A stretch of DNA of 57,958 nt from an uncultured Christensenella sp. (GTDB lineage Bacteria > Bacillota > Clostridia > Christensenellales > UBA1242). Shown here in pieces: positions 6,545 to 29,320 of the stretch; the first letter of the stretch is position 1, and each line of letters starts with the position of its first letter. The stretch spans positions 1 through 57,958 of the forward strand of contig CASFMG010000012.1 in assembly GCA_949295755.1 (NCBI GenBank). Reading direction: 5' to 3'. The notes below the pieces were generated by a model. That model saw only the letters and a program-made list of their open reading frames with translations. It did not search any database and was not told where the DNA came from. Position numbers and translations under genes: made by a program.

Positions 6545-9211
6545 CTATATTCTGTTAGATTCCAAAATATAATCAGTTATATCTTCAACGCCTATAAATC
6601 CATTGGAAAGTAATATAACTTTATCGTTAAGTATTCGGTAATATGCGTACTCTGTTACTCCATTAAAAGTAATGATTGCACTACCATTATTAACTAGTTC
6701 TATAATATATGAATCAAGGGTATTTGTCAATATGTCTAATACTTCTATTTTGTAAGTTCCTGTCAGTTTATTTCCGTAATAATTTTCAAATTTAATGTTG
6801 TCTTTATTTAAAACAACTTCAAATGACTCAATGTTTACAACTGTATCATTCTTTAAAACCAAAAAACAGTTAACAACAAGTATGTTATCTTCAACGAAAG
6901 TTAAATCAATATCTAAATCTTTTTTTTCTAGGTAATTGTAATCATCACTGCTTTGTATGTTATAGAAGACAATTTCATTATTTTCATATCTATAATCTCC
7001 AAATACACTAATAGTCTCTATTCCATTATTTGAAATTTTATAAGTATAAACTCCATTTTTTTCCAAAATCAAACTTGCATTTACAATAACTCCACAGCGC
7101 TCAAATTCTGCTGTCCATTCGCTCACAAAATTTTGATTATATTCTACCATAGTATCAGGTTTTTTATAGTTAGGGTCATGTTCCCATATTGCATATAAAT
7201 TTGTGTTCGTATTGCAATTTTGAGTTATAATATTTAAAAATTCGCTATCTAATATTTGACCATCGACTTCATTTACCCAGCCCATAAATACAAATCCTAA
7301 TTTTTTAGGTTTTGGTAAATAATTTGTTAATTTAAAATCTTGTTGTGAAAAATTTGGGACATCTATGGTACTAATTTCTTCATCTATATGAAGATTGATT
7401 TCAAAGTCAGTTCTTTCTTTAAAGTTAAAATCTATGTTTTTATATAATGTTTGTTCAAAATTAAATCGTTGTGATAATTCATTAACTAAATTTATAGTTT
7501 GATTATCTTCATTCGCAAACTGTTTTAAAGCATCAATAATTTTTTGACGACCAATTAAACCATAAAATATTTTTTGTCCACCACTATAATTTATTGTTAA
7601 ATTAAATTTATTTTCATTTTGGGTAACTACAACAATATTACTTTTTTCTTGACCAAAATTTATATTCAAAAGGTCATCATAAGTCTTAACATTTCCACTT
7701 ACAAAATAATAATTTATATAATTGTAATTTTGTTCGTTAAATAAATAATAAATATCGCTCAAATCATTTTCCGTTAAAAATCCATCGCTTAAAATAAATT
7801 CATTAACACTGTTTCCTTTTACAAAAATAACACTATTATTTTGTGGCATAACAATATTATCTTCAACAATGTCTTGTGGTGATTGAGCAACAACTTCGAT
7901 TGATATTTCTCTATTATTTTTTGTATCAATTTCAGTTAATTCAATATTGTTGACTATATATTTTGTAGGGATTTTTGCTATTTTTTCAAATATGAAGTTA
8001 CTGATTTCGTTATTAGACAAACTATATTTATAATTCACTCCATTATATCTATTTACACTGATTACTCCTATCTCTTCACTATTATACAAAAATTTTAAAT
8101 TTATTTTTTGAGATAATTGATAAACCGCATAAAAAGTTGTATCTTTACTTATATTTTCAATTTTTGTTATATTTTTACCGTCTTCATTACGCCATTCAAT
8201 AAAGTCATAACCATAGTTATACAATTCTTTAGATATAGGTTCGTTAAGTCGAATACTTCCATCAATATTTTTGTATTTTGTTATATTATTAAAATCAATT
8301 TCTGCTTCAATATCCACCAATTTATACGAAATATTGTATTCTTTATTTTGTATTATTTCTTGTTCTTTTTTTAGTTGCTTAATTTTTTCATTTAGTTTTT
8401 CTAATTTTGTTATGTCAATTTGTGTTTTTTGTTCTTCAGTTAAATTGTCTACAATGCTTTGTACATAATTTACTAAATTTTCATCATTTAAATTTAAATC
8501 ATCAACATTTGGCAAAAACTCAATTAAATTTGTTACTTGCAAAACTAATTCATCGTTTTTTGTTTTCTCTTTGACAATAATGTCTACAACGGCAAAAACA
8601 GTTTTGTTATTTTCGCTATAATAAATTTTTATTTGTTTATCATTGACACTTAACGGAATATTTTGCTTATCAAAAGTAATATTATTTGGTTCAAAAGATT
8701 TTACATCCCCCACACAATTTACTTGTAATTTTATACCACTAAAATCAAAATAATCGCCTTCATAATAAGTTGTTTTTGTAGGGTTTTGTATAATTTGCAT
8801 ATTAACTATTTTTCTAGGTTCTACAAAAATATTTAACGATGTTTCAAATTGTTTACCACTGTTTTCATAAATAATTTTTACTGTTTGAGAAGAAACCAAC
8901 AATGGATTATCAACAATAATTTTATAATTTTCTATATTTTTTTCTATGCCAAAATATTGATATTTTGAACATACTAATAAACCATTATTATCAAACTCTT
9001 CACTTTCATAATAGTATAATTTTTTAGGTAAATTTTTAATATAAATTTCAGTAACTGGATTTAAAAAAAATGCAACCGAAAACAAAACTATTGCAGTTAT
9101 AATAAAAATAAATGCAATTAAGAAAATAAGAAATTTTTTATTATTAAAATTTACTTTCTGTATTTTCATCTCCGTTTTTAGTAATATAACTAAAAAGACC
9201 GTATTTGTCAA
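6545..9211 (-). CDS. Large surface protein with N-terminal TM segment, Big_3-like Ig domain and Listeria-Bacteroides repeats
   Basis: 888-aa ORF. The track start at 9211 is a TTG; an alternative ATG at 9167-9169 (MKIQKV) exists and neither has a well-spaced SD, so the start is uncertain. TM segment FLIFLIAFIFIITAIVLFSVAFF. Motifs YEGDYFDFSGIKLQV..ITFDKQ..IKIYY (Big_3-like), and GYDFIEWRNEDG..FYAVY and LGFVFMGWVNE..LYAIW. Its stop (6545-6547) overlaps the SD of the next gene, so it forms an operon with 3578-6535 and 1-3564. Confidence 0.85.
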   Translation of the reverse strand: MTNTVFLVILLKTEMKIQKVNFNNKKFLIFLIAFIFIITAIVLFSVAFFLNPVTEIYIKNLPKKLYYYESEEFDNNGLLVCSKYQYFGIEKNIENYKIIVDNPLLVSSQTVKIIYENSGKQFETSLNIFVEPRKIVNMQIIQNPTKTTYYEGDYFDFSGIKLQVNCVGDVKSFEPNNITFDKQNIPLSVNDKQIKIYYSENNKTVFAVVDIIVKEKTKNDELVLQVTNLIEFLPNVDDLNLNDENLVNYVQSIVDNLTEEQKTQIDITKLEKLNEKIKQLKKEQEIIQNKEYNISYKLVDIEAEIDFNNITKYKNIDGSIRLNEPISKELYNYGYDFIEWRNEDGKNITKIENISKDTTFYAVYQLSQKINLKFLYNSEEIGVISVNRYNGVNYKYSLSNNEISNFIFEKIAKIPTKYIVNNIELTEIDTKNNREISIEVVAQSPQDIVEDNIVMPQNNSVIFVKGNSVNEFILSDGFLTENDLSDIYYLFNEQNYNYINYYFVSGNVKTYDDLLNINFGQEKSNIVVVTQNENKFNLTINYSGGQKIFYGLIGRQKIIDALKQFANEDNQTINLVNELSQRFNFEQTLYKNIDFNFKERTDFEINLHIDEEISTIDVPNFSQQDFKLTNYLPKPKKLGFVFMGWVNEVDGQILDSEFLNIITQNCNTNTNLYAIWEHDPNYKKPDTMVEYNQNFVSEWTAEFERCGVIVNASLILEKNGVYTYKISNNGIETISVFGDYRYENNEIVFYNIQSSDDYNYLEKKDLDIDLTFVEDNILVVNCFLVLKNDTVVNIESFEVVLNKDNIKFENYYGNKLTGTYKIEVLDILTNTLDSYIIELVNNGSAIITFNGVTEYAYYRILNDKVILLSNGFIGVEDITDYILESNRI

Positions 9212-17760: not shown

Positions 17761-17848
17761 GGAAAGTTGGCTGAGTGGTCGAAAGCGGCGGTCTTGAAAA
17801 CCGTTGACCTGAAAGGGTCCTGGGGTTCGAATCCCTAACTTTCCGCCA
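17761..17848 (+). tRNA. tRNA-Ser (anticodon UGA), CCA encoded
   Basis: Cloverleaf folded by hand. Acceptor GGAAAGT/ACTTTCC; anticodon stem GCGGT/ACCGT with loop CT-TGA-AA; long variable arm GACC..GGTC; T arm TGGGG-TTCGAAT-CCCTA; discriminator G then CCA. Confidence 0.95.
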
Positions 17849-17857
17849 TGAACTTGT

Positions 17858-17890
17858 CCATCCGTACCAATATGGTATGGGTGGTTTTTT
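17858..17890 (+). terminator. Rho-independent terminator after tRNA-Ser
   Basis: 12-bp stem ccatccgtacca / tggtatgggtgg (two G-U pairs), loop ata, then T6. Confidence 0.8.
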
Positions 17891-17891
17891 A

Positions 17892-17918
17892 TATAAAAAA
17901 GTGGTATAAAACCACTTT
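17892..17918 (-). terminator. Terminator of the HEPN-like gene (minus strand)
   Basis: Stem aaagtggt / accacttt with loop ataaa, followed on the minus strand by a U-run. It lies 2 nt after the stop at 17920-17922. Confidence 0.7.
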
Positions 17919-17919
17919 A

Positions 17920-18951
17920 TTACTTTAATTCTTTAATTAAAAAGTTTGCAAGTTTTAAATCATTTGTCATTTCTTCAAATAGCAAATTAATATTATTCAA
18001 TACATATCTTAAATACTTCATATTTATAAACAACAAAATTAGTTTTATACAATCTTCTTTTGTTGCTATTTTATTGTATACACCATGAGCAAGATCATGT
18101 CTATTTATATTTTCTTTGTTTTGAATATTAGTATTAATATTGCATAATTCATAAAATGCCTTAATTTTGTCCCACCACTCATCATAATATTGCATATTTA
18201 ATTTTTCAATAAATTTGTTAATTTGATTTGTTCGAGTATTTCTTTTCGTTTTTTCATTTGTTTCACTCATTTTCATATATTCATTATCAATCAAAGCGAA
18301 TAGCGTTCTAGCGCATGAATTATAAGAATAATTTTCCAAACAAGAAATTGCCTCTTTTAAATCTCCAATTTTATCTTTTTGCAATTCACTATCAAAAATT
18401 TTTGCATCTAAAATCTCTGAAAAATTTAATTTTAAAGTTTGAAAGTTGTTTTGAGAATAAATCTCAGTAACATACTTTTCAAGATTCTCATCTAAAGTAT
18501 TTTTTAGAACTTCATCTGGCATCGTATAAAAGTATAAAATATATCCTAAACCTGCCAACTTTCTTATTTTTGACATATATTTTTCACTAAACAATGTTTT
18601 TCTATCTTGATTAATTAATAATATGTATGAACTTAGTTGTTTAAAATATTTATATTTTATTTCATCTCTCTTTTTTAATATATCATTTATTTTTGCAAAT
18701 TTTGGATATTTATTAAAATCTTGAATTACCTTAGCAAATTTAGTGGGTGCAGTTTCTTTAATTTTAAGCGTTTCTTCGAAATTTTTATTAATATCATCAT
18801 AAAATGGAATGTTGTTGTTTTGTAAAATTTGTTCCAAAGGAATTGCTTTTACTAATTGTTTATACTCATCCGTTATATTTGATAATTCATCATCTAATTT
18901 ATTTAATTTTTTTTCTTCCTCTAATTGTCTTTTTAATATAATGTCTTCCAT
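17920..18951 (-). CDS. Hypothetical protein with C-terminal HEPN-like domain (Rx4H motif NRHDLAHG); putative RNase/toxin-like effector
   Basis: 343 aa. SD GGGAGAG lies 4-5 nt from the ATG. The N-terminal half is charged and coiled-coil-like. The C-terminal helical region LKEAISCLENYSYNSCARTLFALIDNEY ... NINRHDLAHGVYNKI has R284 and H289 (codons 18085-18102). The domain call rests on motif recall only. Confidence 0.45.
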   Translation of the reverse strand: MEDIILKRQLEEEKKLNKLDDELSNITDEYKQLVKAIPLEQILQNNNIPFYDDINKNFEETLKIKETAPTKFAKVIQDFNKYPKFAKINDILKKRDEIKYKYFKQLSSYILLINQDRKTLFSEKYMSKIRKLAGLGYILYFYTMPDEVLKNTLDENLEKYVTEIYSQNNFQTLKLNFSEILDAKIFDSELQKDKIGDLKEAISCLENYSYNSCARTLFALIDNEYMKMSETNEKTKRNTRTNQINKFIEKLNMQYYDEWWDKIKAFYELCNINTNIQNKENINRHDLAHGVYNKIATKEDCIKLILLFINMKYLRYVLNNINLLFEEMTNDLKLANFLIKELK

Positions 18952-19106
18952 TTATCTCTCCCAATTACAATAATAATTTCTTTTATATTTTATCACATAA
19001 TTTAACATTTTGTTTAATTTTATTGAAAATAGTTTTTAAATATATTAATCAAATTTTATTATTTATTAAACAACAAATATAAAAACGATACAAACTGTAA
19101 ATTGTA

Positions 19107-19115
19107 TGCTATAAT
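19107..19115 (+). promoter_or_regulatory. Extended -10 promoter (TGcTATAAT) for the 19140 gene
   Basis: tgctataat at 19107-19115, followed by AAAGGAG (19128-19134) and the ATG at 19140. Confidence 0.55.
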
Positions 19116-19139
19116 AGGTAAATAAGAAAGGAGAATATT

Positions 19140-20138
19140 ATGGAACAAAAATGTCCTATATGCAACAAAAAACATGAAATTATTGACGATGTAAATGAAT
19201 TTAACACAAAGGTTTATAAATGTCAAAAAACAAAATGTAAAATTCATGAAAGTGTTTTCTATGGAATAGATGATGCAGAAAAAGAAAAAAGATTAAATGC
19301 CATTTATAATTTTTTATATGAACATCCATTTGCAGATAAACATAAAACATATTGGAGATTTTTTTTTGAAGAAACAAATAATGCACCTTATGAACACTAT
19401 AATATTAATGTTTTTCATTTGATGCATAACTATCCTTACAATATTGAGAAAAGAATTAACGCTATTTTATTAGCTTTAAACAAATTATATCCAACAATAG
19501 CAGATTCTTTTACTATAAAAGATTTATATACAAATCATCCAAGATTATTTTATCCCGAAAGTTTATCAATGGGAGAAGAAAAAGTTATTAAAGAATTTGT
19601 TAGTATTTATTCTATATTAAGCAAATTAGACTTCATAGAACTAAGAGCAAAAGTTCAGGGTGAACCAGAAAAAACAGAATACGCTTTAACATATGAAGGA
19701 TTAAAGAAAATTAATGAACTTATGCAAGACAATCAAAACTCTAATAAAATTTTTATAGCGATGTCATTTGATCAAGATGTTGAATATATAGAATTAGCAT
19801 TTAAAGAGTCTATTGCCGATGCGGGATTTCAACCTGTAATAATAAAAGATAAAGAACATAATAATTATATTATGCCAGAAATTTTTTATGAAATCGAAAA
19901 TTGTGCAGCAATTGTTATGGATTTAACTAAACCAAATTTTGGAGCGTATTATGAGGCTGGTTATGCTTTAGGTTTAAAAAAACAGGTAATAGCGTGCTGT
20001 AAGGAAACTACTTTTAATAATTCCAAAATAAAGCCACATTTTGATATTTCTCAAAAATCTATGATTATTTGGAAAGATGAAGCTGACTTAAAGGAAAAAT
20101 TAACAAAAAGAATAAAATATACTATCAATGTAAAATAA
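19140..20138 (+). CDS. Zn-ribbon / wHTH-like / C-terminal nucleoside 2-deoxyribosyltransferase-like (TIR-like Rossmannoid) domain protein
   Basis: 332 aa with a strong SD. Zinc ribbon C5-x2-C8 ... C28-x4-C33. Central SILSKLDFIELRAKVQGEPEKTEYALTYEGLKKI resembles a winged helix. C-terminal KIFIAMSFDQD..AAIVMDLTKPNFGAYYEAGYALGLKKQVIACC fits the NDT-like pattern, retaining D261 and E272. The domain calls rest on motif recall only. Confidence 0.5.
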   Translation: MEQKCPICNKKHEIIDDVNEFNTKVYKCQKTKCKIHESVFYGIDDAEKEKRLNAIYNFLYEHPFADKHKTYWRFFFEETNNAPYEHYNINVFHLMHNYPYNIEKRINAILLALNKLYPTIADSFTIKDLYTNHPRLFYPESLSMGEEKVIKEFVSIYSILSKLDFIELRAKVQGEPEKTEYALTYEGLKKINELMQDNQNSNKIFIAMSFDQDVEYIELAFKESIADAGFQPVIIKDKEHNNYIMPEIFYEIENCAAIVMDLTKPNFGAYYEAGYALGLKKQVIACCKETTFNNSKIKPHFDISQKSMIIWKDEADLKEKLTKRIKYTINVK

Positions 20139-20168
20139 AATCGTGCTTTTTAGGGCACGATTTTTTTA
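20139..20168. terminator. Bidirectional terminator between convergent genes
   Basis: Stem aatcgtgc (20139-20146) / gcacgatt (20155-20162), then T7. Confidence 0.7.
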
Positions 20169-21737
20169 TTGTTCTCTTTTTTGAAGTACTGCAAAATATT
20201 CTTTTGAGTAGAATATTGATAGGTCTATGTTTTTATTTATTTCTTGTTCGGTTAATAATTTATGTTTTTCTTTTTCTAAATCAAAGTTGTCTATAATATT
20301 TGTTATTGCACTTTGTGTATAGTTTAAATCGGTAAAGTTATAAAATATAACTATTGCATCGTTATAAAGAATAATTTGTTTAATAAAAGTTTTTACAATA
20401 TGCTTTCTAACTTCATAATTTTCAATATCGCCACAAATAATCTTTTTGAAATATTCCATAACCATATCTTCTGTTAAAAATGATAGATTCTTTTGTTTCT
20501 CTTGTTCAATAGCAATATCGTATTCTGCTATTTGCATTTCAAGTTCTTTTAATCTTACTTTTGTTTGTTCGGTTATAATTCCTAATTCAACAGCACTTAT
20601 AAGATTTTGTGATGCTTTTAATAATTTATCTCGACTTAATTCAAGTGCTTTAATTCTTGCTTCTTCTTCGTTATCACTTTGACATTCTATAATCTTTTTT
20701 GCAATCTTTTTTAAGTTATTATTGTTAGATAGCACTTTCCAAGTTATATCCACAACTTCTTTTTCAAGTTCATCTTTCTTATTAGATTGCATCAGACAAT
20801 TTAAATGCTTTCTTCTTCGTTTTGTTAAGCAAGAATAATATCTATATTTAATTACTTTTTTAATTTCTTTACCAGATTCTCCAACCATTTTATGTTTGCA
20901 ATAACCACAAAATAATTTGCCAGACAAGATATAATCATAAGAATCTTGTTTTCGTATTTGTGCGTGTTTATATGCTTTCCTTAAATCTTGAACTTTTTGC
21001 CAAGTTATTTCATCAATGATCGGTGGATAAATATTTGTGTAAACAGTATCACCATGTTGGACTTTTCCAATATACTTTGTATTTGCAATTATTTTATATA
21101 TTTTCTTATCATCTATTAAAACACCTTTTTTAGTTCTAACATCTCTTGCTTTTAAGTCTTTGGCTATATCTACACCCGTATAACCCTGTGAAAATTTTGT
21201 AAATATTTCTTTTACAATCTTTGCTTCACTTTCATTAATAACATTTCGTTTTTCAACGACATCATATCCATATATTTGATTTCCACCTGTAAAGTATCCT
21301 TTTAAGTAACTTTCATTTAAACCACGAAGCACTTTTTGAGATAGTTCTGCTGAATAGTATTGATTCATACCTTCAAGTAAACTCTCAAGTATTATTCCTT
21401 CTGGTGTGTCTGGTATGTTTTCCATAGCAGATAATAGTTTTACTCCATTACTACTTAAGGTGTGTTTATGTATTGTTGTTTCATATTTGTTTCTACTAAA
21501 TCTATCTAGTTTATATACAATTACATAATCCCATTGTTTCTTATTGCTATCTTTTATCATTCTTTGAAAATCTGGTCTATTATCGTTAGTACCTGTCATT
21601 GCTCTGTCAATGTAAGTATCTAAAATAACAATATTATTTCTTTGAGCAAAATCTTTACAAACTCTTAATTGTCCTTCAATAGATTGTTCTGTTTGACTAT
21701 CACTTGAATATCTTGCATATATAACTGCTGTTTTCAT
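20166..21737 (-). CDS. Large serine recombinase (resolvase/invertase N-terminal domain + recombinase domain + zinc ribbon + coiled coil)
   Basis: 523 aa. SD GGAGG. N-terminal AVIYARYSSDSQ with the catalytic Ser, then DRPDFQRMI and VIVYKLDRFSRN. Zinc ribbon LFCGYCKHKM..YYSC. Long helical C-terminus. Confidence 0.92.
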   Translation of the reverse strand: MKTAVIYARYSSDSQTEQSIEGQLRVCKDFAQRNNIVILDTYIDRAMTGTNDNRPDFQRMIKDSNKKQWDYVIVYKLDRFSRNKYETTIHKHTLSSNGVKLLSAMENIPDTPEGIILESLLEGMNQYYSAELSQKVLRGLNESYLKGYFTGGNQIYGYDVVEKRNVINESEAKIVKEIFTKFSQGYTGVDIAKDLKARDVRTKKGVLIDDKKIYKIIANTKYIGKVQHGDTVYTNIYPPIIDEITWQKVQDLRKAYKHAQIRKQDSYDYILSGKLFCGYCKHKMVGESGKEIKKVIKYRYYSCLTKRRRKHLNCLMQSNKKDELEKEVVDITWKVLSNNNNLKKIAKKIIECQSDNEEEARIKALELSRDKLLKASQNLISAVELGIITEQTKVRLKELEMQIAEYDIAIEQEKQKNLSFLTEDMVMEYFKKIICGDIENYEVRKHIVKTFIKQIILYNDAIVIFYNFTDLNYTQSAITNIIDNFDLEKEKHKLLTEQEINKNIDLSIFYSKEYFAVLQKREQ

Positions 21738-21903
21738 TTTTAACCTCCATACATCTTTTATTAGAGGTTACAATGTTGTTTTTTACATTAGTATCAAGTC
21801 TATGTTTACTTTGTAAATACGGTATGTATATAAAATGTTTCAACAATATTTCTTTAACATATCTTTTTTGTAAACTTGTTTTAACAAATTGTTCTAAAAA
21901 CAT
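21700..21903 (-). CDS. Small basic hypothetical protein upstream of, and overlapping, the recombinase start (candidate regulator/directionality factor)
   Basis: ATG at 21901-21903 is preceded by a perfect AAGGAGG (21913-21919) with an 8-nt spacer. 67 codons, ending 38 nt inside the recombinase gene in another frame. No recognisable motif. Confidence 0.3.
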   Translation of the reverse strand: MFLEQFVKTSLQKRYVKEILLKHFIYIPYLQSKHRLDTNVKNNIVTSNKRCMEVKNENSSYICKIFK

Positions 21904-22040
21904 ATAGTTAACCTCCTTATCGAAAATTTTTTTCGACAAGAAAAAATCATCAGAGAATGGGCGCAGATGTCAAAGAAAAAGAAAAAAAATATTGTCTTTA
22001 AAATTTTGAAATTAAAAGTTTTAAGCAATAATTTTTTCCT

Positions 22041-22069
22041 TTGACAGCCAGAACATTCTATGATAAATT
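22041..22069 (+). promoter_or_regulatory. Strong candidate promoter reading rightward into the long leader of the DUF2075 gene
   Basis: TTGACA (22041-22046), 17-nt spacer ending in TG-a, and -10 TAAATT (22064-22069). No protein gene lies within the next 500 nt. Confidence 0.5.
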
Positions 22070-22271
22070 TCCCAAACGAAAAAGGATGATAACTTAAACC
22101 CAACAAATAGAACAATTTGTTTATATTATTAAGAAATATATAAAATCAATATTTTTATATCCACAATTAATAAAAATCTTATATAATGATTTTTAATATT
22201 GGGATGAAGGTTGTTATATGGGAAAACACAGTCCCGAAGTAATTGAGCAAATGAGAAAATCGAATTAAAAG

Positions 22272-22352
22272 ACAAACGGCAACTAAAAAAATGTGAGGCA
22301 GAAACGGAAAGCCTGCGCGTTGATGCCCACATTAGTTACCGTTTGTTTTTAT
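22272..22352 (+). terminator. Long imperfect hairpin followed by a U-tract (terminator/attenuator-like or structured RNA)
   Basis: Outer arms acaaacggcaactaa (22272-22286) and ttagttaccgtttgt (22332-22346) pair at 14 of 15 positions. An inner helix atgtg(a)ggca / tgcccacat is also present. The G+C-rich interior is followed by tttttatt. Confidence 0.45.
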
Positions 22353-22397
22353 TCACCAAGATTTTAATTGTGAAATTTCTTGCTTTGTTTGTGTTTT

Positions 22398-22455
22398 GGC
22401 GTGTGCTTGTCTGGTGGCGCAAAGCGACACCACTTGTTCAAGACAAGCACACGCC
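22398..22455. repeat. Perfect 15-bp GC-rich inverted repeat enclosing a second small hairpin
   Basis: ggcgtgtgcttgtct (22398-22412) and agacaagcacacgcc (22441-22455). The interior ggtg-g-cgc-aaa-gcg-a-cacc can itself fold. It stands out against the AT-rich background. Confidence 0.7.
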
Positions 22456-22518
22456 AGGATCTCATTTGTTAATTTTTCAATAAAAATATAAAAGTTCAAA
22501 TTCCCCTTGCCCTACCAT

Positions 22519-22547
22519 TTGCTTTTTTTATAATTTTATGATATATC
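22519..22547 (+). promoter_or_regulatory. Candidate proximal promoter of the DUF2075 gene
   Basis: TTGCTT (22519-22524), 17-nt spacer with TG at 22539-22540, -10 TATATC (22542-22547). Confidence 0.4.
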
Positions 22548-22571
22548 TTCAACTGTTAAGGAGAATATATT

Positions 22572-24416
22572 ATGAACGGTTTTATTTCGACAATAGGAGA
22601 TTTTAATACATTATCAACTACTGAAATTCTATCTATTTTAAAAAGTAAGTATTCTAATGCAGAAAAATCACAAATTTTATCATGGGAAACTTTGATAAAT
22701 GATATTAAAAATTCTAAAAAATTTAATGAAATTAATAAAAAATGTTTAATTGGATTGGAAATATCTCTTCCAACGGATGGCATGGCTATTGATTTGTTGA
22801 TTTGTGGTAAAAATTCAATAAAAGAAAAAGAGTGTTTTATTATCGAAGCAAAACAATGGAATGATGATTATATCAACAATAGTCATTTTTCTCAATATAG
22901 AGAACCAGGATTTGAACTACATCCTCAAATTCAAGTATATAGACACTCGTTAAGTTTTAAAGACTATCTTGATATCGGTATTGATTATAATGTTCATAAA
23001 CTCGTTTTTGTTAGAAATTGTTCTAAAAATGGTATTGTAAATTTAATAAATAAAAACACTTTGCTTTCAACTAAAAATATACAAGTTGATAATGATATAG
23101 ATGAAATTATGTCAATTATAGCATCAAATTTAATTTGTGGCGAAATAACAACAGATGAAATAATTAATGCTGAGTATAAGCCATCAAAAAGTATTATTAA
23201 AGCAATGGAGTCTATAGTTTCTCACAACGAACCTTTTATTTTAACAATAGAACAGCAAAATGTGATAAATAAAATTAATGAAGCAATTAATAATGGGAAA
23301 AAAATTATTCGTATTACTGGAGCAGCTGGGTCAGGTAAAACAGCAATTTTATTAAATATGTATGTTAATCTTTTAAATAGACAAGCCAATGGCGAAGATG
23401 TCCGTCCTGTATTTGTTTCTGGAGCACAAAATACGGCTTTTTATAGAAGCACATATCCTGAAGTTGAACGCTCATTTTCATATTCATATTCTTTAGATAA
23501 AATGGTAGCAAAAACAAAAGGCAATTTATATTATGTGTTAATGGATGAAGCACAACATAATCAAGAAGGTATTATACAAACAATGATAGATAGAAATGTA
23601 ACACTTGTACTTTGTTATGATATTTCGCAGGTTATTAATGCTAACAATTCAATTGCTGAACTAACAAATTTAGAAAAAAGAGAAGACTTTTTGTGTATTA
23701 ATTTAGAAAAAAGTGTAAGATTTAACGGCTCTCAATTAGCAGAAAAAAATATAAGAAATTATTTGAAAGGTTCTTTAGATATAAAAGAAGATAATATTTT
23801 TGAATTTAAAGTATTTAATGATTTAAAAACTTTTCAAGAAAAAATTGTTTCTACTATTAATAACCATCCCGATGATACGGTTGCAGTTGTTGGTCTTCTT
23901 TCAAATGATGCTTCAAAATATACAAATTCTGAAAATCCTGACTCAATATTTTTTACTCAATGGGGAAATAAGGCTGAATGTGATTGGCTTCCATATATTA
24001 ATGATAAAAATTATCTTTCAAAAAATAATGGAAACTTATGGGTCGGAACTTGGTGGATGCCTGGCTTAGATGTTGATTACATTGCTGTTATTGTAGGAGG
24101 CGATGCAAATCATTCATCAAATGGTATTAAAGCAATACCTGATCAAGCAAAACATTATTTAATGATGGTAAGTATAGGAAGAAAACTTAACCTTCCAGAT
24201 GAATTATTTGTTACAAAAAAAAGTTTTGGCAAAATTGTTCAAGATAATAGAAAAACTGCAGATAATATCATGAATTATTTAAAAGATAAACCTGACTTAT
24301 ATGAAAATTTTATTAATATGTTTTCTCAATTGTTAAGAAATAATTATTACATAATGATGACCAGAGGAAGAAAAGGCTGTTTTGTCTACTTTACTGACCA
24401 AACAGGAAAGAATTAA
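22572..24416 (+). CDS. DUF2075-type protein: N-terminal PD-(D/E)xK nuclease-like domain fused to a P-loop SF1-like ATPase/helicase
   Basis: 614 aa. SD AAGGAG. Nuclease-like motif LEISLPTDGMAIDLLICG ... CFIIEAKQW (D74, E92, K94). Walker A ITGAAGSGKTA and Walker B YYVLMDEAQH. Later motifs VLCYDISQVI, SVRFNGS, GLDVDYIAVIVGGD and YYIMMTRGRKGCFVY. Confidence 0.8.
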   Translation: MNGFISTIGDFNTLSTTEILSILKSKYSNAEKSQILSWETLINDIKNSKKFNEINKKCLIGLEISLPTDGMAIDLLICGKNSIKEKECFIIEAKQWNDDYINNSHFSQYREPGFELHPQIQVYRHSLSFKDYLDIGIDYNVHKLVFVRNCSKNGIVNLINKNTLLSTKNIQVDNDIDEIMSIIASNLICGEITTDEIINAEYKPSKSIIKAMESIVSHNEPFILTIEQQNVINKINEAINNGKKIIRITGAAGSGKTAILLNMYVNLLNRQANGEDVRPVFVSGAQNTAFYRSTYPEVERSFSYSYSLDKMVAKTKGNLYYVLMDEAQHNQEGIIQTMIDRNVTLVLCYDISQVINANNSIAELTNLEKREDFLCINLEKSVRFNGSQLAEKNIRNYLKGSLDIKEDNIFEFKVFNDLKTFQEKIVSTINNHPDDTVAVVGLLSNDASKYTNSENPDSIFFTQWGNKAECDWLPYINDKNYLSKNNGNLWVGTWWMPGLDVDYIAVIVGGDANHSSNGIKAIPDQAKHYLMMVSIGRKLNLPDELFVTKKSFGKIVQDNRKTADNIMNYLKDKPDLYENFINMFSQLLRNNYYIMMTRGRKGCFVYFTDQTGKN

Positions 24417-24418
24417 TT

Positions 24419-24574
24419 ATGAATATAGATGAAATTATTAATAATATTGCTAATAAATTAAAAGAAAAATTGCCTAAAATATGGATTGGTAAAGAAGCAA
24501 TATTATTTATGAAAAATAATAATTGTAATCATTTGAAAAATCCTAAAATAAGAATAATTAGAATTCCTTTTTAA
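24419..24574 (+). CDS. Small hypothetical ORF (51 aa) coupled to the DUF2075 gene
   Basis: Below the ORF-track length cut-off. The ATG lies 2 nt after the DUF2075 stop, and AGGAAAG lies about 10 nt upstream. Sequence MNIDEIINNIANKLKEKLPKIWIGKEAILFMKNNNCNHLKNPKIRIIRIPF. It could instead be a remnant of a lost gene. Confidence 0.3.
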   Translation: MNIDEIINNIANKLKEKLPKIWIGKEAILFMKNNNCNHLKNPKIRIIRIPF

Positions 24575-24578
24575 ATTA

Positions 24579-24606
24579 TTGTATTTCAGCATTTTTATGA
24601 TATACT
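24579..24606 (+). promoter_or_regulatory. Candidate promoter of the methyltransferase gene
   Basis: TTGTAT (24579-24584), TG at 24598-24599, -10 TATACT (24601-24606). It contains the same 12-mer TTTTATGATATA as the DUF2075 proximal promoter. Confidence 0.4.
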
Positions 24607-24633
24607 TACCCTGTTGCGTAAGGAGTATAATTT

Positions 24634-25818
24634 ATGTATAATTTCAAATTTATTGATTTGTTTTCTGGGATAGGTGGTTTTCATCAAGCACTTCAAAACT
24701 TAGGTGGAGAATGCGTATTTGCTTCTGATATTGATAAATATGCTATAGAAACTTATAAAGGAAATTATGGCATAAATTCAGACTGCAATATTAGGAACGT
24801 AAAAGAAGAGGATATTCCACAACATGATATTTTGTGTGCAGGTTTTCCTTGTCAAGCATTTTCTAAGGCTGGACATCAAAAAGGTTTTGCTGATGAAACA
24901 AGAGGAACTTTGTTTTTTGAAATTATAAGAATATTGAAATATCATAAAACACCTTGTTTTATTTTAGAAAATGTTAGGAATTTAGCTTCTCACGATCATG
25001 GTAATACATGGAAAGTTATTAAAAATTCTCTAAAAGAATTAGGGTATGTAATAACTGAAGATCCTATCATAATAAGTCCACATCAATTAGGCGTTCCGCA
25101 AATAAGAGAAAGAGTTGTTATATTAGGAATACATAAATCTTTAGGTATAGAAAAAATAAATGTAGAATTGCCTGCATTAACTAAAAATGATGTAAATTTT
25201 TTTGATTCTGATATTTTAGAAAAAGGTAAAGTTGATAAAAAATATTATATATCAAAGCATGAAGAAATTGTTTTAAATTGCTGGGACGAATTTATTAAAG
25301 GTGTTAAAGAAAAAGTTATTGGTTTTCCAATTTTAGCTGAAGAATTTGGACAAACTTATGATTATACAATACTAGGTTATCCAAATTGGAGGATGAATTT
25401 TATAAAAAGAACAAGAGACCTTTATGAGAATAATAAAGAGTTTATAGACAATTGGTTAAAAAAATGGAATAATTTGGATACTTTTACAAATACAGAAAAG
25501 AAGTTAGAATGGCAATGTGGAAAAGATTGTTCTTCTATATGGGATGGATTTATTCAGTTTAGACCTTCTGGAATAAGAGTAAAAAGACCTACTGTTTTCC
25601 CATCACTTGTTGCTATGGTGCAAATTCCAATTATTGGTGTAGTTAAAAGAAGACTTACCCCTAGAGAAGCTGCTAGATTACAAAGTTTTCCTGATACATT
25701 TGTATGTAATAAAAATGACCATCAAGCATATAAACAATTTGGAAATGCTGTTAATGTAAAGGTTATTGAATATATGGCTAAACAAATGTTTAAAAATATT
25801 AAGAAAAATAACAATTAA
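24634..25818 (+). CDS. dcm: DNA (cytosine-5)-methyltransferase
   Basis: 394 aa. Motif I FIDLFSGIGGF, motif IV GFPCQAFS, motif VI ENV, motif VIII QIRERV, motif IX RRLTPREAARLQSFPD, motif X QFGNAVNV. All motifs are intact. Confidence 0.93.
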   Translation: MYNFKFIDLFSGIGGFHQALQNLGGECVFASDIDKYAIETYKGNYGINSDCNIRNVKEEDIPQHDILCAGFPCQAFSKAGHQKGFADETRGTLFFEIIRILKYHKTPCFILENVRNLASHDHGNTWKVIKNSLKELGYVITEDPIIISPHQLGVPQIRERVVILGIHKSLGIEKINVELPALTKNDVNFFDSDILEKGKVDKKYYISKHEEIVLNCWDEFIKGVKEKVIGFPILAEEFGQTYDYTILGYPNWRMNFIKRTRDLYENNKEFIDNWLKKWNNLDTFTNTEKKLEWQCGKDCSSIWDGFIQFRPSGIRVKRPTVFPSLVAMVQIPIIGVVKRRLTPREAARLQSFPDTFVCNKNDHQAYKQFGNAVNVKVIEYMAKQMFKNIKKNNN

Positions 25819-25840
25819 ACAAATATACTATTAATTATGT

Positions 25841-26350
25841 TCAAATAAAGTATGTATTTGGATTGATAATTTTTACTTTGCAATTTTTTTGTTTTGCATA
25901 TAAAAGTGTATTTTTCGTTCCACTTGGTTTTCCGTTCCAACAAGCAATACAAATATTAGAGTTGTTAACCATAAATTTATTTCTTTCATTCATGCAGGTT
26001 CGCGTATATTTGGGTGATAAAACAATTTTATTATCACATTGATTTAAAATATTATTATACCTTTCTTGTTGACTAAGTTTCCATTTTGATTCTTGACCTA
26101 AGCAAGGCACTACAGCAATTATTTGTATGTTGTGCTTTTTCTTTAAGTTTAATAAAATTTCAGTTCCTATCATATCAAAACCTTCCGCCATTCCACTTAA
26201 AAAAGTTTTATAACCACATTTGATAGCATTCTCAAATATAGTTTCTAAATCTTTTTTGAATTTAATACAAGATTCTTTTGTTTCATCATAACCCCATGGC
26301 AAAGATTTAGGTCTATGACCTGTAAGGCAAATTGTTTGTTCTTTTATCAT
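25841..26350 (-). CDS. DUF1273 / YpsA-like SLOG family protein
   Basis: 169 aa. N-terminal CLTGHRPKSL, then SGMAEGFDMIGTE, and C-terminal WNGKPSGTKNTL, matching the YpsA-type SLOG pattern as I recall it. Confidence 0.7.
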   Translation of the reverse strand: MIKEQTICLTGHRPKSLPWGYDETKESCIKFKKDLETIFENAIKCGYKTFLSGMAEGFDMIGTEILLNLKKKHNIQIIAVVPCLGQESKWKLSQQERYNNILNQCDNKIVLSPKYTRTCMNERNKFMVNNSNICIACWNGKPSGTKNTLLYAKQKNCKVKIINPNTYFI

Positions 26351-26460
26351 AATATATCCTTTCTTTTATTATTATATGTCATCATATTAGGCAGTTGCAA
26401 GCATTTTGTCATCAAAATAGGCAATAATATCTGTAAAGTATAAAACTTTACGGAGAAACT

Positions 26461-27574: not shown

Positions 27575-28399
27575 CTATATGGCAAGTTGCCTTAATTGTT
27601 TATTTGCGTATGGTAACCATACTTTGTTTATAAAGTTCATAACTTTGCTATCTGGTTTTGAATTGTGGTCAGCATAACATTGTAATATTTTGTGATTTTT
27701 AAGTGAATATTCAAGCGTAACAAATGGTTTGTTAGGCTTGTTTTTGTTTCTTATGAAGAATATCAAACTTTCTTCTCTAACAAACTTTTGGTCATAGTTC
27801 ATACTACCAACGCAGTGATGAAGTTTTTTGCCTTCATACACTAAATCTTCTGAACTTGTCGGAATTATTGAAATATACACATCTTTTAAATTGTGTTGTA
27901 AAGACAAATATTTGTTTGCAATGTTTAAAAACTTTAAGTTAAATGCTTTTCTTTCTTCTTCATCTGTTTTTTGTTTTGCAGTTGTGTATTCATCAATTCG
28001 TATGTCGTGCCAACGCTTAAAGTCGTGTGGTATTTTGTTTTTGTTTTCTTGCATATTAAGTTTTAAATATTTGCAAGCATTTAAGTAATCTATATACAAA
28101 CTATCATCAATTTGTTGAGAAGTGATATAATTAAAAAATTGCTCAATGTTGCCATTAAACAATTCTTTTATTTCTCTATAATGTTCATTTTTTGAAAAGG
28201 ATTTAATAAATGTTTCTAGTTGTTGTGTTTTATCTAAATCTTTATTTTGTTTATATGCAGTAATAATGGTTGAAACATAGTAACTTTTAAGATATATTTC
28301 AAGTTTGTTTTTAATAAGCCACTTTCTAAACTGTTTATCTTTTTCAATTAGTTTTAGTATTGTTTTACTTGTAGCGTAATATTTTAAATTTAGCTTCAT
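27575..28399 (-). CDS. PcfJ-like protein (C-terminal part; gene probably 5'-disrupted)
   Basis: 274 aa from the first ATG. GKKLHHCVGSMNYDQKFVREESLIFFIR resembles the PcfJ-domain HCVG signature. The frame stays open for 151 more codons upstream (28400-28852) with no ATG, GTG or TTG. Confidence 0.7.
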   Translation of the reverse strand: MKLNLKYYATSKTILKLIEKDKQFRKWLIKNKLEIYLKSYYVSTIITAYKQNKDLDKTQQLETFIKSFSKNEHYREIKELFNGNIEQFFNYITSQQIDDSLYIDYLNACKYLKLNMQENKNKIPHDFKRWHDIRIDEYTTAKQKTDEEERKAFNLKFLNIANKYLSLQHNLKDVYISIIPTSSEDLVYEGKKLHHCVGSMNYDQKFVREESLIFFIRNKNKPNKPFVTLEYSLKNHKILQCYADHNSKPDSKVMNFINKVWLPYANKQLRQLAI

Positions 28400-28796
28400 T
28401 AAATATTCTGCTTGTGGATATTGTTCATAAATTCGTAAATATTTTATAAAGTCTTGATAAGCGTATTCATTTGCTAAACTATATTTATATTTTTCAAATT
28501 TTAAAGCATACTCACGATTAACGATAGGTGCAAATGGATCAAAGTATGTATCATCTGCACAACCCCAATTTCCATATTCATAATATTTTGGTTCTTTTTG
28601 CAGTCCTTGTTCATACCAACCAACACTATATCCAGCAATCCAAGTGTATTCTATGTCTTTAATAAAGCAATCTTTCGAATTTACTCCGTGAATTGCAACT
28701 TGTTTACAATACCAATTTTTGCCTTTGTTTTTAACTGCAACGGTTACTTTAACAAGTTCTTTATCGTTGGTTGTAAGGTAAGCGCTCCGCCAAATG

Positions 28797-28835
28797 AAAC
28801 TGATAAGAGCAAGCAGTCTTATCAGTTTATTTTTT
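28797..28835 (+). terminator. Perfect 12-bp hairpin plus T-run (plus-strand terminator-like) inside the start-less upstream extension of the PcfJ-like ORF
   Basis: aaactgataaga (28797-28808), loop gcaagcag, tcttatcagttt (28817-28828), then atttttt. Confidence 0.45.
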
Positions 28836-29320
28836 ACTTTATTATTAATCCTTTATTAATACATCGCAATTAAGTCCTTCATATTTTTTCTTTATCATTA
28901 TTTTAATTAATATATTTTCTAAATAAAATTAAATTTAAAATATACTAAAAAATTTATTTCCACCATTTATATGTTATAAACTTTTTATTTGTTCTGCAAA
29001 ATATTATGATCACTTTTTTGTATTTACAATTAAAATTTTGTTAAATAAAAAATAAATAATAGATATTAAACAAAAAAAATTGTTAAATAAATAAATTTAC
29101 ATAAATTTATATTTGTAAAGTTTTTATTTATTAAATTGTATTATATACGGACTATTAAATTTTATGAAAGTATTTACTTTTAAATTGAATAATTATATAA
29201 TTAATTTGAAATTTGATTTTATAAAAATTTGTATTACAATCAAAAAATATAAATCATAAAACTATGTAAACATTACATAATTAACCTCTGTAATTAAATA
29301 ATACATTAAAAGGAAATCTT

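Follow-up and report, generated by a model that had tools for sequence, protein, structure and literature searches.

A gene-poor gap in an uncultured Christensenella contig as the probable scar of a deletion in an inovirus-like element

The stretch studied here, positions 21,738 to 22,571 of contig CASFMG010000012.1 (assembly GCA_949295755.1, uncultured Christensenella sp.), separates the gene of a large serine recombinase from that of a NERD-DUF2075 protein. The whole piece of DNA that was analysed, 57,958 nucleotides (nt) of this contig, is called the window. The gap carries the end of a gene for Rep, a rolling-circle initiator, followed by two non-coding structures, a long imperfect hairpin (hairpin 1) and a 58-nt palindrome. 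Taken together, the comparisons presented below suggest that it is the scar of a deletion in an inovirus-like element, with the tail of Rep and a relic of a filamentous-phage-type origin region left in place. This reading draws on sequence comparison and on analogy with known origins, and we assign it a probability of about 0.65.

Features of the gap

The features of the locus were delimited with the help of two related contigs, L090, which carries a sister element from a different sample, and L073, which is the closest relative of the window that bears Rep. They are as follows.

20166-21737, − strand: large serine recombinase, 523 amino acids (aa); Pfam Resolvase, Recombinase, and Zn_ribbon_recom
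21700-21903, − strand: 67-aa open reading frame (ORF) overlapping the recombinase start, with an AAGGAGG ribosome-binding site at ~21909-21915
21904-22145: divergent control region of the parent element, intact up to the left deletion edge (99.5% identity to L090)
21973-21946, − strand: leftward promoter-like site, by sequence match
22041-22069, + strand: promoter-like TTGACA-17-TGnTAAATT, with 10/12 matches and the TG present; conserved in L090
22146-22184: deletion junction, an AT-rich filler that separates the DNA in common with L090 from that in common with L073
22185-22268, + strand: Rep pseudogene 3′ fragment (NDF, stop codon, YWDEGCYMGKHSPEVIEQMRKSN, stop codon), the last 28 codons of Rep, including a mini-ORF at 22218-22268
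22269-22350, + strand: hairpin 1 (type B), three-tier and imperfect, with a 5′ A-rich bulge, the apical loop GAAAGCCTGCGCG, and a T-rich 3′ side
22397-22456, + strand: palindrome, with outer arms at 22398-22412 and 22441-22455 plus the T-A pair 22397/22456
22413-22431, + strand: inner hairpin of the palindrome, read from the sequence as GGTG-GCGCAAAGCGA-CACC
22432-22440, + strand: unpaired segment of the palindrome, read from the sequence as ACTTGTTCA
22457-22477: short tail common to L073 and L037, at which homology ends and cargo begins
22507-22571, + strand: segment unshared with relatives, with a promoter-like site of the cargo (TTGCCC-16-TATAAT, 22507-22534) and the ribosome-binding site AAGGAG
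22572-24416, + strand: NERD + SLFN-g3/DUF2075 helicase (Pfam; PADLOC candidate PDC-S41, E = 9e-12), first gene of the cargo slot

An earlier note on this DNA had presented the stretch as an 834-bp gene-free gap, the longest in the window. The features that it listed are present, but the stretch is not free of genes, given that the 67-aa ORF, which gene callers recognise in all other copies of the locus (L087, L089, L090, and L091), occupies part of it and leaves 668 nt. A longer gap exists at 28400-29320, where 921 nt are without a called gene. The site at 22041-22069 had been taken for a strong promoter pointing right with no protein gene behind it. The match itself holds, including the extended −10 element, but it does not stand out statistically, given that 14 promoter-like sites were found in the window against the 8.9 ± 2.8 expected in such AT-rich DNA. 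It is also true that no protein gene follows it in the window, whereas the intact element on L090 has a repressor operon at this place.

The imperfect hairpin described at 22272-22346, with a T-rich tract behind it, was confirmed, its outer arms (22268-22286 and 22332-22350) being 89% complementary. The same holds for the description of the two structures as local G+C spikes, with values of 0.37-0.41 against 0.13-0.27 nearby (surrounding DNA ~0.25). The perfect 15-bp inverted repeat enclosing a small hairpin was also found, although its true length is 16 bp (22397-22412/22441-22456), and its arm sequence has a single occurrence within the window. Fold significance was evaluated by comparing a 281-nt block with dinucleotide shuffles, which gave z = −6.95 for the + strand and z = −8.34 for the − strand.

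The Rep tail and the lost part of the element

The 16-codon ORF MGKHSPEVIEQMRKSN at 22218-22268 exists as it had been described, but it is not a free-standing mini-ORF, given that its sequence identifies it as the tail of a pseudogene for rolling-circle Rep. A WDEGCY lies upstream in the same frame, the sequence fits the C-terminal consensus of the family, CWDEGCYxGKVSxEVIAQLRKVN, and the GAAGG noted upstream of it corresponds to the D-E-G codons of the in-frame tail. When the region was compared with phage records by blastn, the single match was the palindrome (62 nt, 93.5% identity) in MT835493.1, where it lies ~145 nt past the stop codon of a 354-aa ORF ending in CWDEGCYIGQVSPEVIAQMRKVN. 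In the window the same frame ends in YWDEGCYMGKHSPEVIEQMRKSN and a stop codon, with further stop codons before it. A tblastn search with the Rep of L073 aligned residues 315-343 to window 22176-22262 (69% identity, E = 3e-8), and found no other similarity to Rep in the whole window. MT835493.1 (L001) is the sole virus-labelled record with the palindrome, and is an unverified 57-kb "Bacteriophage sp." contig.

The 354-aa ORF belongs to Pfam PF23343 (REP_ORF2-G2P), a family of rolling-circle initiators of the HUH/Y-x3-Y kind. In intact relatives Rep is a ~340-aa protein with an invariant HFHG (H221/H223) and Y282-x3-Y286. The Y-x3-Y spacing is the same as in the A protein of phiX174. The fragment in the window falls outside PF23343, as it covers residues ~315-343 only and has neither the HUH nor the Y-x3-Y motif; it lacks the catalytic motifs and has an in-frame stop, and is therefore considered a pseudogene fragment. 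Homologs of Rep number ~3,958 and are unnamed, most of them coming from gut metagenomes. A comparison with NCBIfam yielded no names for Rep or its neighbours, and a sequence search of the PDB with Rep gave no match.

The extent of what is missing can be read from the two related contigs. The serine recombinase protein is identical in L090, and this contig is 99.5% identical to window 17823-22145. Past that point L090 has a 49-aa ORF, an S24/LexA-like repressor, and several small ORFs, followed by 404-aa, 171-aa, and coiled-coil (>695 aa) proteins, a gene string that matches the one preceding Rep in L073. In its turn, L073 carries full-length Rep, aligns with window 22186-22477 over its positions 6998-7293 (93% identity, blastn), and matches the window again over the HTH gene and the PcfJ-like gene (85-93%). 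Because L090 continues with the repressor and structural genes where the window jumps to the Rep tail, the alignments identify the window as a deletion derivative of an integrated inovirus-like element, with ~10 kb lost.

As this comparison shows, the deleted segment comprised the repressor operon, the structural and Zot-like assembly genes, and all of Rep but the last 28 codons. The deletion fused the divergent control region, with its rightward promoter, to the Rep tail, while both non-coding structures were kept. This explains why a promoter stands with no gene behind it; in the intact element the 22041-22069 site faces the repressor operon, for which it may be the promoter. A tblastn search of the window found no structural-gene or Zot-like similarity and no Rep beyond the tail. 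Homology to L090 fades within 22122-22145 and homology to Rep begins at ~22185, so that the filler measures ~40-60 nt (roughly 22123/22146 to 22184).

The nature of the parent element was examined in a wider sample. A genome scan with an alignment of Rep gave 80 loci, mostly in metagenome-assembled genomes of Clostridia, Christensenellales, and Onthoplasma, and the comparison set consisted of 82 sequences, namely 81 Rep-carrying loci (labelled L001 and so on) and the window. Clustering of their ORFs revealed two types of upstream module, all on the strand of Rep. In type A, three membrane-anchored proteins precede one of 705 aa that has a P-loop and, at its N-terminus, membrane segments. Type B, found in the relatives of the window, comprises a 118-aa protein and membrane proteins, a coiled-coil/Listeria-Bacteroides-repeat protein of 700-1000 aa, a P-loop protein of 274 aa, and a basic protein of 109 aa. 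The 274-aa protein matches PHROG 197 "Zot-like" (E = 2e-8) and shares 29% identity (E = 3e-18) with the protein annotated as Zot in bajarodino virus 12 (PQ006185.1), a 9.8-kb circular Inoviridae genome, with Pfam Zot reaching E = 0.015 only. In the upstream clusters c2-c4 and c5/c13/c14, hydrophobic segments were seen at the N-terminus, along with Ig or Listeria-Bacteroides repeats, and none of the upstream clusters matched a coat-protein family. The elements exceed 20 kb and have a leftward PcfJ / PcfK-MutS_I operon. Because the intact relatives carry a Zot-like ATPase, which the window does not, and membrane proteins upstream of Rep, they are regarded as inovirus-like prophages of gut Clostridia.

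In this respect they resemble the cryptic inoviruses described by Roux et al. 2019 in a set of 5,964 genomes (PMC6813254), which are also integrated and combine a pI/Zot-like ATPase with a rolling-circle Rep, serine or tyrosine recombinases, integration in tRNA genes, and accessory cargo. They differ in that origin hairpins are not described there and that the scans of IMG/VR found no exact copy of the palindrome. Searching IMG/VR with a 20-mer of the palindrome gave five chance matches only, within the coding region of one unrelated phage, and a gapped palindrome pattern gave zero matches. Viral pipelines therefore seem to miss this element family. Plasmid records gave no blastn match to the region. 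No paper describing the palindrome or hairpin 1 turned up, though no search was aimed directly at them.

The two structures across related loci

The conservation and covariation of the hairpins in homologous loci, which the earlier note had named as a check, were found for both structures. The order Rep stop codon, ~75-nt hairpin 1, spacer, and palindrome is seen in 67/82 sequences, and 67/82 is also the number that carry the complete 58-nt palindrome, in 45 distinct variants. Its conserved core lies ~140-185 nt past the Rep stop in nearly all of them, and its layout is a left arm GGCGTGTGCTTGTCT, an inner hairpin, an unpaired (A)CTTGT(A)TCA, and a right arm AGACAAGCACACGCC. In the alignment, 91% of the cells of 23 pairs are paired and 9 pairs have changed on both sides, which 0/500 shuffles reach, the slid controls being 22-51% paired. 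The two helices behave differently: compensation is found in 6/8 pairs of the inner helix, while the outer helix is almost invariant, with compensatory changes in 3/15 pairs.

Mean pairwise identity was computed over 53 distinct loci. It amounts to 96-97% in the arms and 83% in the inner part and loop, compared with 71% in the last 300 nt of Rep, 58% in the interval that holds hairpin 1, and 44% in the next 60 nt downstream. The palindrome is common to module types A and B. That a non-coding site is better conserved than the adjacent gene, and common to both module types, points to recognition of its sequence by a protein and to a link with Rep, the one protein that all loci share.

In most variants the inner hairpin is a 4-7-bp stem with tandem G.A and a GCGAAGC cap, and in the window this is GCAAAGC, a loop also found in L077. 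GCGAAGC is an extremely stable DNA mini-hairpin known at single-strand initiation sites (PMC13037366). The unpaired segment occurs as CTTGTTCA, CTTGTATCA, or CTCGTATCA, which are similar, but not identical, to the nick consensus CTTGATA. No second copy of the palindrome, such as excision from tandem origins would need, was found within ±6 kb. At least eight contigs end within ~20 nt of the palindrome (L009, L042, L044, L066, L069, L079, L085, and L086), probably as assembly breaks from co-existing strains with different cargo. Many type A loci have, ~100 nt past the palindrome, an operator-like ATGACA-N6-TGTCAT/TGGCAT palindrome before an XRE-family gene; it was seen in L001 (~4125-4150), L012, L014, L018, L023, L027, L028, and L065.

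The homologs of hairpin 1 are three-tier hairpins of 65-100 nt with an A/T-rich base, a 3-6-nt A-rich 5′ bulge, and a conserved apical loop. Their stems differ completely between loci yet remain paired, with compensatory changes in 10/13 predicted pairs in type B (RNAalifold on 15 type B homologs) and in 11/14 in type A. The loop has the form C-AAGCGG-N-T-N-AGCG in type A and GAAAGC(C/T)TGCG(C/T)G in type B, including the window. This form agrees with the type of the morphogenesis module in 48/48 and 17/17 loci (65/65), none being mixed. The match could reflect shared ancestry, and it is also the pattern to be expected of a packaging signal that the assembly proteins recognise. Relative to L073, the copy in the window has one C.A mismatch and one G.T wobble, and a folding energy of −20.1 versus −28.4 kcal/mol.

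Hairpin 1 was also considered as ssoA, a single-strand origin (sso) of rolling-circle plasmids, and this was rejected. The RS_B consensus (PMC4598088), TTATGCCGAGAAAATTT, was not found by inspection of 58 hairpin-1 sequences, and CS-6 (TAGCGA/T) is absent from the window loop GAAAGCCTGCGCG. Many type A loops have TAGCG(G), and others TCAGCG. A terminator scan of the region found none, given that hairpin 1 exceeds the loop and stem limits of the scanner; by eye, the 3′ side is T-rich in nearly all homologs.

Both structures fold better on the + strand in most loci. With DNA parameters this is the case for the palindrome in 52 loci versus 2 and for hairpin 1 in 41 versus 17, and with RNA parameters in 47 versus 9 and 50 versus 9, respectively. 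The folding strand is thus the coding (+) strand, and mRNA and + strand single-stranded DNA (ssDNA) are not separated by the fold bias. For the palindrome DNA is favoured, because of the DNA mini-hairpin motif, the invariant sequence of the arms, and its position beyond the T-rich tail of hairpin 1.

Possible roles, rival explanations, and the cargo slot

On this reading, both structures would belong to the cis-acting intergenic region of that element and would act as hairpins in + strand ssDNA. The palindrome would be the recognition site of Rep and the plus-strand origin (double-strand origin, dso), with the invariant arms as the binding site and the covarying inner stem, with its GCGAAGC-type cap, presenting the unpaired ACTTGT(A)TCA for nicking. 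It is assigned to Rep as plus origin because ACTTGT(A)TCA resembles the CTTGATA nick of Rep_1/phiX-type initiators and because Rep shares its Y-x3-Y spacing with the A protein of phiX174. Hairpin 1, just upstream, would be displaced last and would end the transcription of Rep, and its module-specific apical loop may signal packaging and/or the priming of the minus strand. The copy of the pair in the window is orphaned, with neither Rep nor assembly genes in cis, and is most likely an inert relic beginning to decay, which could act only if a helper supplied Rep in trans.

Such an arrangement recalls the intergenic region of Ff/f1, where the origin hairpins guide the nick made by pII, the priming of the minus strand, and packaging; with a helper they are sufficient in cis, and they also terminate the transcription of gene IV (PMC10334589). 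In both cases a cluster of + strand hairpins lies beside the gene of a rolling-circle initiator in an element that also encodes a Zot/pI-like ATPase, and a long imperfect hairpin precedes the origin proper. By analogy, the hairpins here would double as a transcription stop and would act in cis, and as in phagemids and miniphages they persist in a derivative without genes (PMC10334589). The differences are that there is no sequence similarity, that the region here is downstream of rep and not upstream, and that Rep belongs to PF23343. In addition, the hosts here are Gram-positive-type gut Clostridia and relatives, and the elements exceed 20 kb, carry integrases and defence cargo, and are known from sequence only.

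A second likeness is with the rolling-circle plasmids, in which the sso, active in one orientation, immediately precedes the dso (PMC5703833, PMC10378824). The dso and ssoA of pC194/pUB110 similarly present a long, orientation-specific hairpin just upstream of a short palindrome with an unpaired CTTG-containing motif, and type A hairpin-1 loops contain TAGCG, as CS-6 does (PMC4598088, PMC10378824, PMC5703833). Variable cargo beside the origin also recalls the qacC cassettes between dso and sso (PMC5703833). Unlike in these plasmids, the nick consensus CTTGATA is inexact here (CTTGTTCA / CTTGTATCA), RS_B is absent, the type B loop of the window has no CS-6, and Rep is outside the Rep_1, Rep_2, and Rep_trans families. 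The third likeness is with the GCGAAGC/GCGAAAGC mini-hairpins of the complementary-strand origins of G4, St-1, and alpha3, of RSF1010 ssiA, and of the N4 promoters, where the same cap is flanked by tandem G.A within a larger origin hairpin (PMC13037366). Those are priming or promoter sites for primase or RNA polymerase, whereas here the motif might mark the plus, and not the minus, origin.

Several points weigh against the proposed origin region. The functional assignments rest on position, conservation, and analogy, and the plus-origin, minus-origin, and packaging roles may be swapped between the hairpins, given that GCGAAGC is known chiefly from sites of minus-strand priming. The unpaired motif (CTTGTTCA / CTTGTATCA) resembles, without matching, the Rep_1/phiX-type nick CTTGATA; the hairpin-1 loop of the window has neither CS-6 nor RS_B and hence is no ssoA; and a precise break in the right arm, once taken for the nick, is where another element has inserted. 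An RNA structure would account just as well for the covariation and the + strand bias. As for the element itself, its size of more than 20 kb and its PcfJ/PcfK/MutS_I genes make it larger and odder than classical inoviruses, and IMG/VR has no copy of the palindrome.

The explanation that survives best beside this one is that both structures act in RNA only, hairpin 1 as intrinsic terminator or 3′-end stabiliser of the Rep mRNA and the palindrome as a second 3′-untranslated structure or an insulator. They do stand on the coding strand immediately past a stop codon, the base of hairpin 1 is A-rich on its 5′ side and its 3′ side is T-rich, the + strand bias is stronger with RNA parameters (50 loci versus 9 for hairpin 1), G-U pairs are tolerated, and the origin hairpins of f1 also terminate transcription (PMC10334589). 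Nonetheless, a terminator needs no 30-bp three-tier stem with an invariant loop that matches the assembly module 65/65. The palindrome lies beyond the T-tract of hairpin 1 with none of its own, its arms are 96-97% identical, which indicates sequence-specific recognition beyond pairing, and GCGAAGC is a DNA-specific ultra-stable motif (PMC13037366). The terminator scan of the region was empty, and no Rfam family was found there. We therefore consider an RNA-only role unlikely. At gathering threshold, Rfam recognised two tRNAs and nothing else in the whole window, and between 21600 and 22700 at E ≤ 10 it gave chance miRNA and snoRNA matches only (10-21 bits versus thresholds of 40-100). This agrees with the earlier note, which had matched the region to no known RNA family, and leaves unsupported its suggestion of an independent structured small RNA, although the structures may be transcribed.

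It is also conceivable that the orphan origin is still used, the Rep-less island being a phagemid or satellite that is replicated and packaged with the Rep and assembly proteins of a relative and so spreads its defence cargo. The palindrome is complete and does not fall outside the functional variants (the GCAAAGC loop being present in L077 as well), the f1 origin alone suffices with a helper and miniphages retain little else (PMC10334589), the sister sample has an intact element with this recombinase, and the cargo ORFs are intact. Against this, hairpin 1 has two stem-weakening changes with respect to L073, the PcfJ-like gene is broken, a single orphan was seen, in a sampling unable to detect others, and an integrated single origin yields no circle by rolling-circle replication without prior excision. 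On balance we find continued use quite improbable.

A further explanation takes the palindrome for an att-type site, either of the element's own serine recombinase or as a landing pad for other integrating elements. Its background is the break in the right arm mentioned above. In four loci (L008 at 7239, L021 at ~7249, L039 at 7239, and L043 at 7268) homology stops exactly after ...TCAAGAC, and a metagenome scan with the 22 nt past the break found at least 120 contigs (L092-L211). This 22-mer, TG(Y)(R)ACA(Y)A(W)TTTTATGGA(Y)(R)(Y), forms the conserved end of a different mobile DNA, where AC always precedes it. At the right-arm junction, TCAAG-AC-AAGCACACGCC, this mobile DNA is joined to both halves with AC at both junctions in 42/120 sampled ends, of which 18 copies abut ...TCAAGAC and 24 abut the reverse complement of ACAAGCACACGCC and the right flank of the palindrome. 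Elsewhere, copies have inserted into Rep genes at FNYFCT and into serine-recombinase genes at codons ~4 and ~71. The mobile DNA is longer than 9 kb, and several copies have a distant serine recombinase ~1.7 kb from the end. Given that the 22-mer is a mobile-DNA end with AC at both junctions, the break is an insertion, and its interpretation as the nick of Rep was rejected. The 22-mer gave zero matches in IMG/VR and does not occur in the window.

The 42 ends joined to the right arm, and the junction shared by four Rep loci, do speak for an att-type site, and the earlier note was right to the extent that recombination takes place within the right arm, by a different mobile element and in other metagenomes. 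However, the palindrome is intact and internal in integrated elements, including that of the window, which ends at tRNA-Ser (17823) and at ~28.8-29.3 kb, and it is found equally in elements with tyrosine integrases and with serine recombinases. The 22-nt-ended DNA also inserts in Rep and recombinase genes, so that a role as target would be secondary, and the window lacks the 22-mer. Action of the window's own recombinase on the palindrome is not supported, given that this enzyme integrates the element at tRNA-Ser. As a whole, the att-type explanation is very doubtful. With regard to the earlier proposal of an origin or att-type DNA hairpin inherited from a conjugative element, it came nearest to the evidence, since the structures partner a Rep gene, but the parent appears inovirus-like and not conjugative.

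The weakest explanation, a leader-peptide/terminator attenuator or other cis-regulator driving the NERD-DUF2075 gene from the 22041 promoter, takes its appeal from the order of promoter, short ORF, terminator-like hairpin, and DUF2075 gene on one strand, and is extremely improbable, given that this order was made by the deletion, that the ORF is the Rep tail, that the structures travel with the upstream Rep while unrelated genes follow them in relatives (gene sets vary widely among the 67 palindrome-bearing sequences), that no conserved alternative antiterminator pairing was found, and that DUF2075 has its own promoter-like site and ribosome-binding site in cargo-specific DNA. Regulation of the DUF2075 gene by the region is accordingly not supported by the sequence, in which it figures as a cargo gene.

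This gene opens a variable slot that lies between the palindrome and the conserved HTH/c9/PcfJ genes of the leftward operon (window 22478-26460) and differs in content between relatives. Equivalents of the slot are found in L012, L014, L017, L028, L048, L051, L062, L064, and L081. All of the sampled slot proteins (10/10) match PADLOC models, namely type I, IIG, and III restriction-modification, BrxP-like, mad3, HKD+Snf2, Ppl-like, and PDC-S41, and the DUF2075 and C5-methylase genes of the window are therefore regarded as defence-type cargo.

The finding is real and ordinary in kind, a pseudogene tail and orphaned origin-region hairpins, and the family-wide picture matters more than the copy in the window. 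For annotation, labels such as small RNA, attenuator, or 16-codon gene should be avoided for the region, which is the mark of a decayed prophage whose defence-type cargo survives intact. The cis pair, hairpin 1 and the nearly invariant palindrome with its GCGAAGC mini-hairpin, accompanies a Rep family of thousands of unnamed gut-Firmicutes proteins. If the palindrome is an origin, it would provide a handle for finding cryptic filamentous-type elements missed by IMG/VR-style pipelines, phagemid-like vectors could be built for gut Clostridia that are hard to manipulate, and the homing of a defence-gene hotspot and of a second mobile element to the same few bases could become easier to explain. 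In the broadest form of this idea, a very large, undescribed family of inovirus-like prophages in gut Clostridia would have the 58-nt palindrome as its common single-strand origin; the palindrome would at the same time bound a defence-gene exchange slot on the left, as a fixed border, and be the preferred landing site of a second family of recombinase-borne elements, with Rep-less islands, such as that of the window, as helper-dependent satellites that spread restriction and defence cargo as ssDNA; taken as a whole, this is a speculative and rather unlikely picture.

The remaining observations concern the island as a whole, which spans from ~17823, inside tRNA-Ser, to ~28.8-29.3 kb. Its left end lies inside the 3′ part of tRNA-Ser(tga) (window 17761-17845), and the element of L090 is in tRNA-Ser(gct) (L090 9890-9982); the target is tRNA-Ser although the integrase is a large serine recombinase. 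Two genes at window 17920-20138 are conserved with the recombinase at both insertion sites. The 343-aa one is without a family match, and the second, of 332 aa, has a weak nucleoside 2-deoxyribosyltransferase-like domain and a match to PHROG 16139; both may be defence cargo as well. A 51-aa ORF at 24419-24574, lying between the DUF2075 helicase and the C5 methylase, is called in other copies of the locus and has no family match. The PcfJ-like gene at window 27575-28783 (− strand) is broken, given that a 437-aa homolog covers 28783-27581 (tblastn) and the open frame covers only 27575-28399, which is a further sign of decay of the island. The 921 nt at 28400-29320 are very AT-rich and probably hold its right end.

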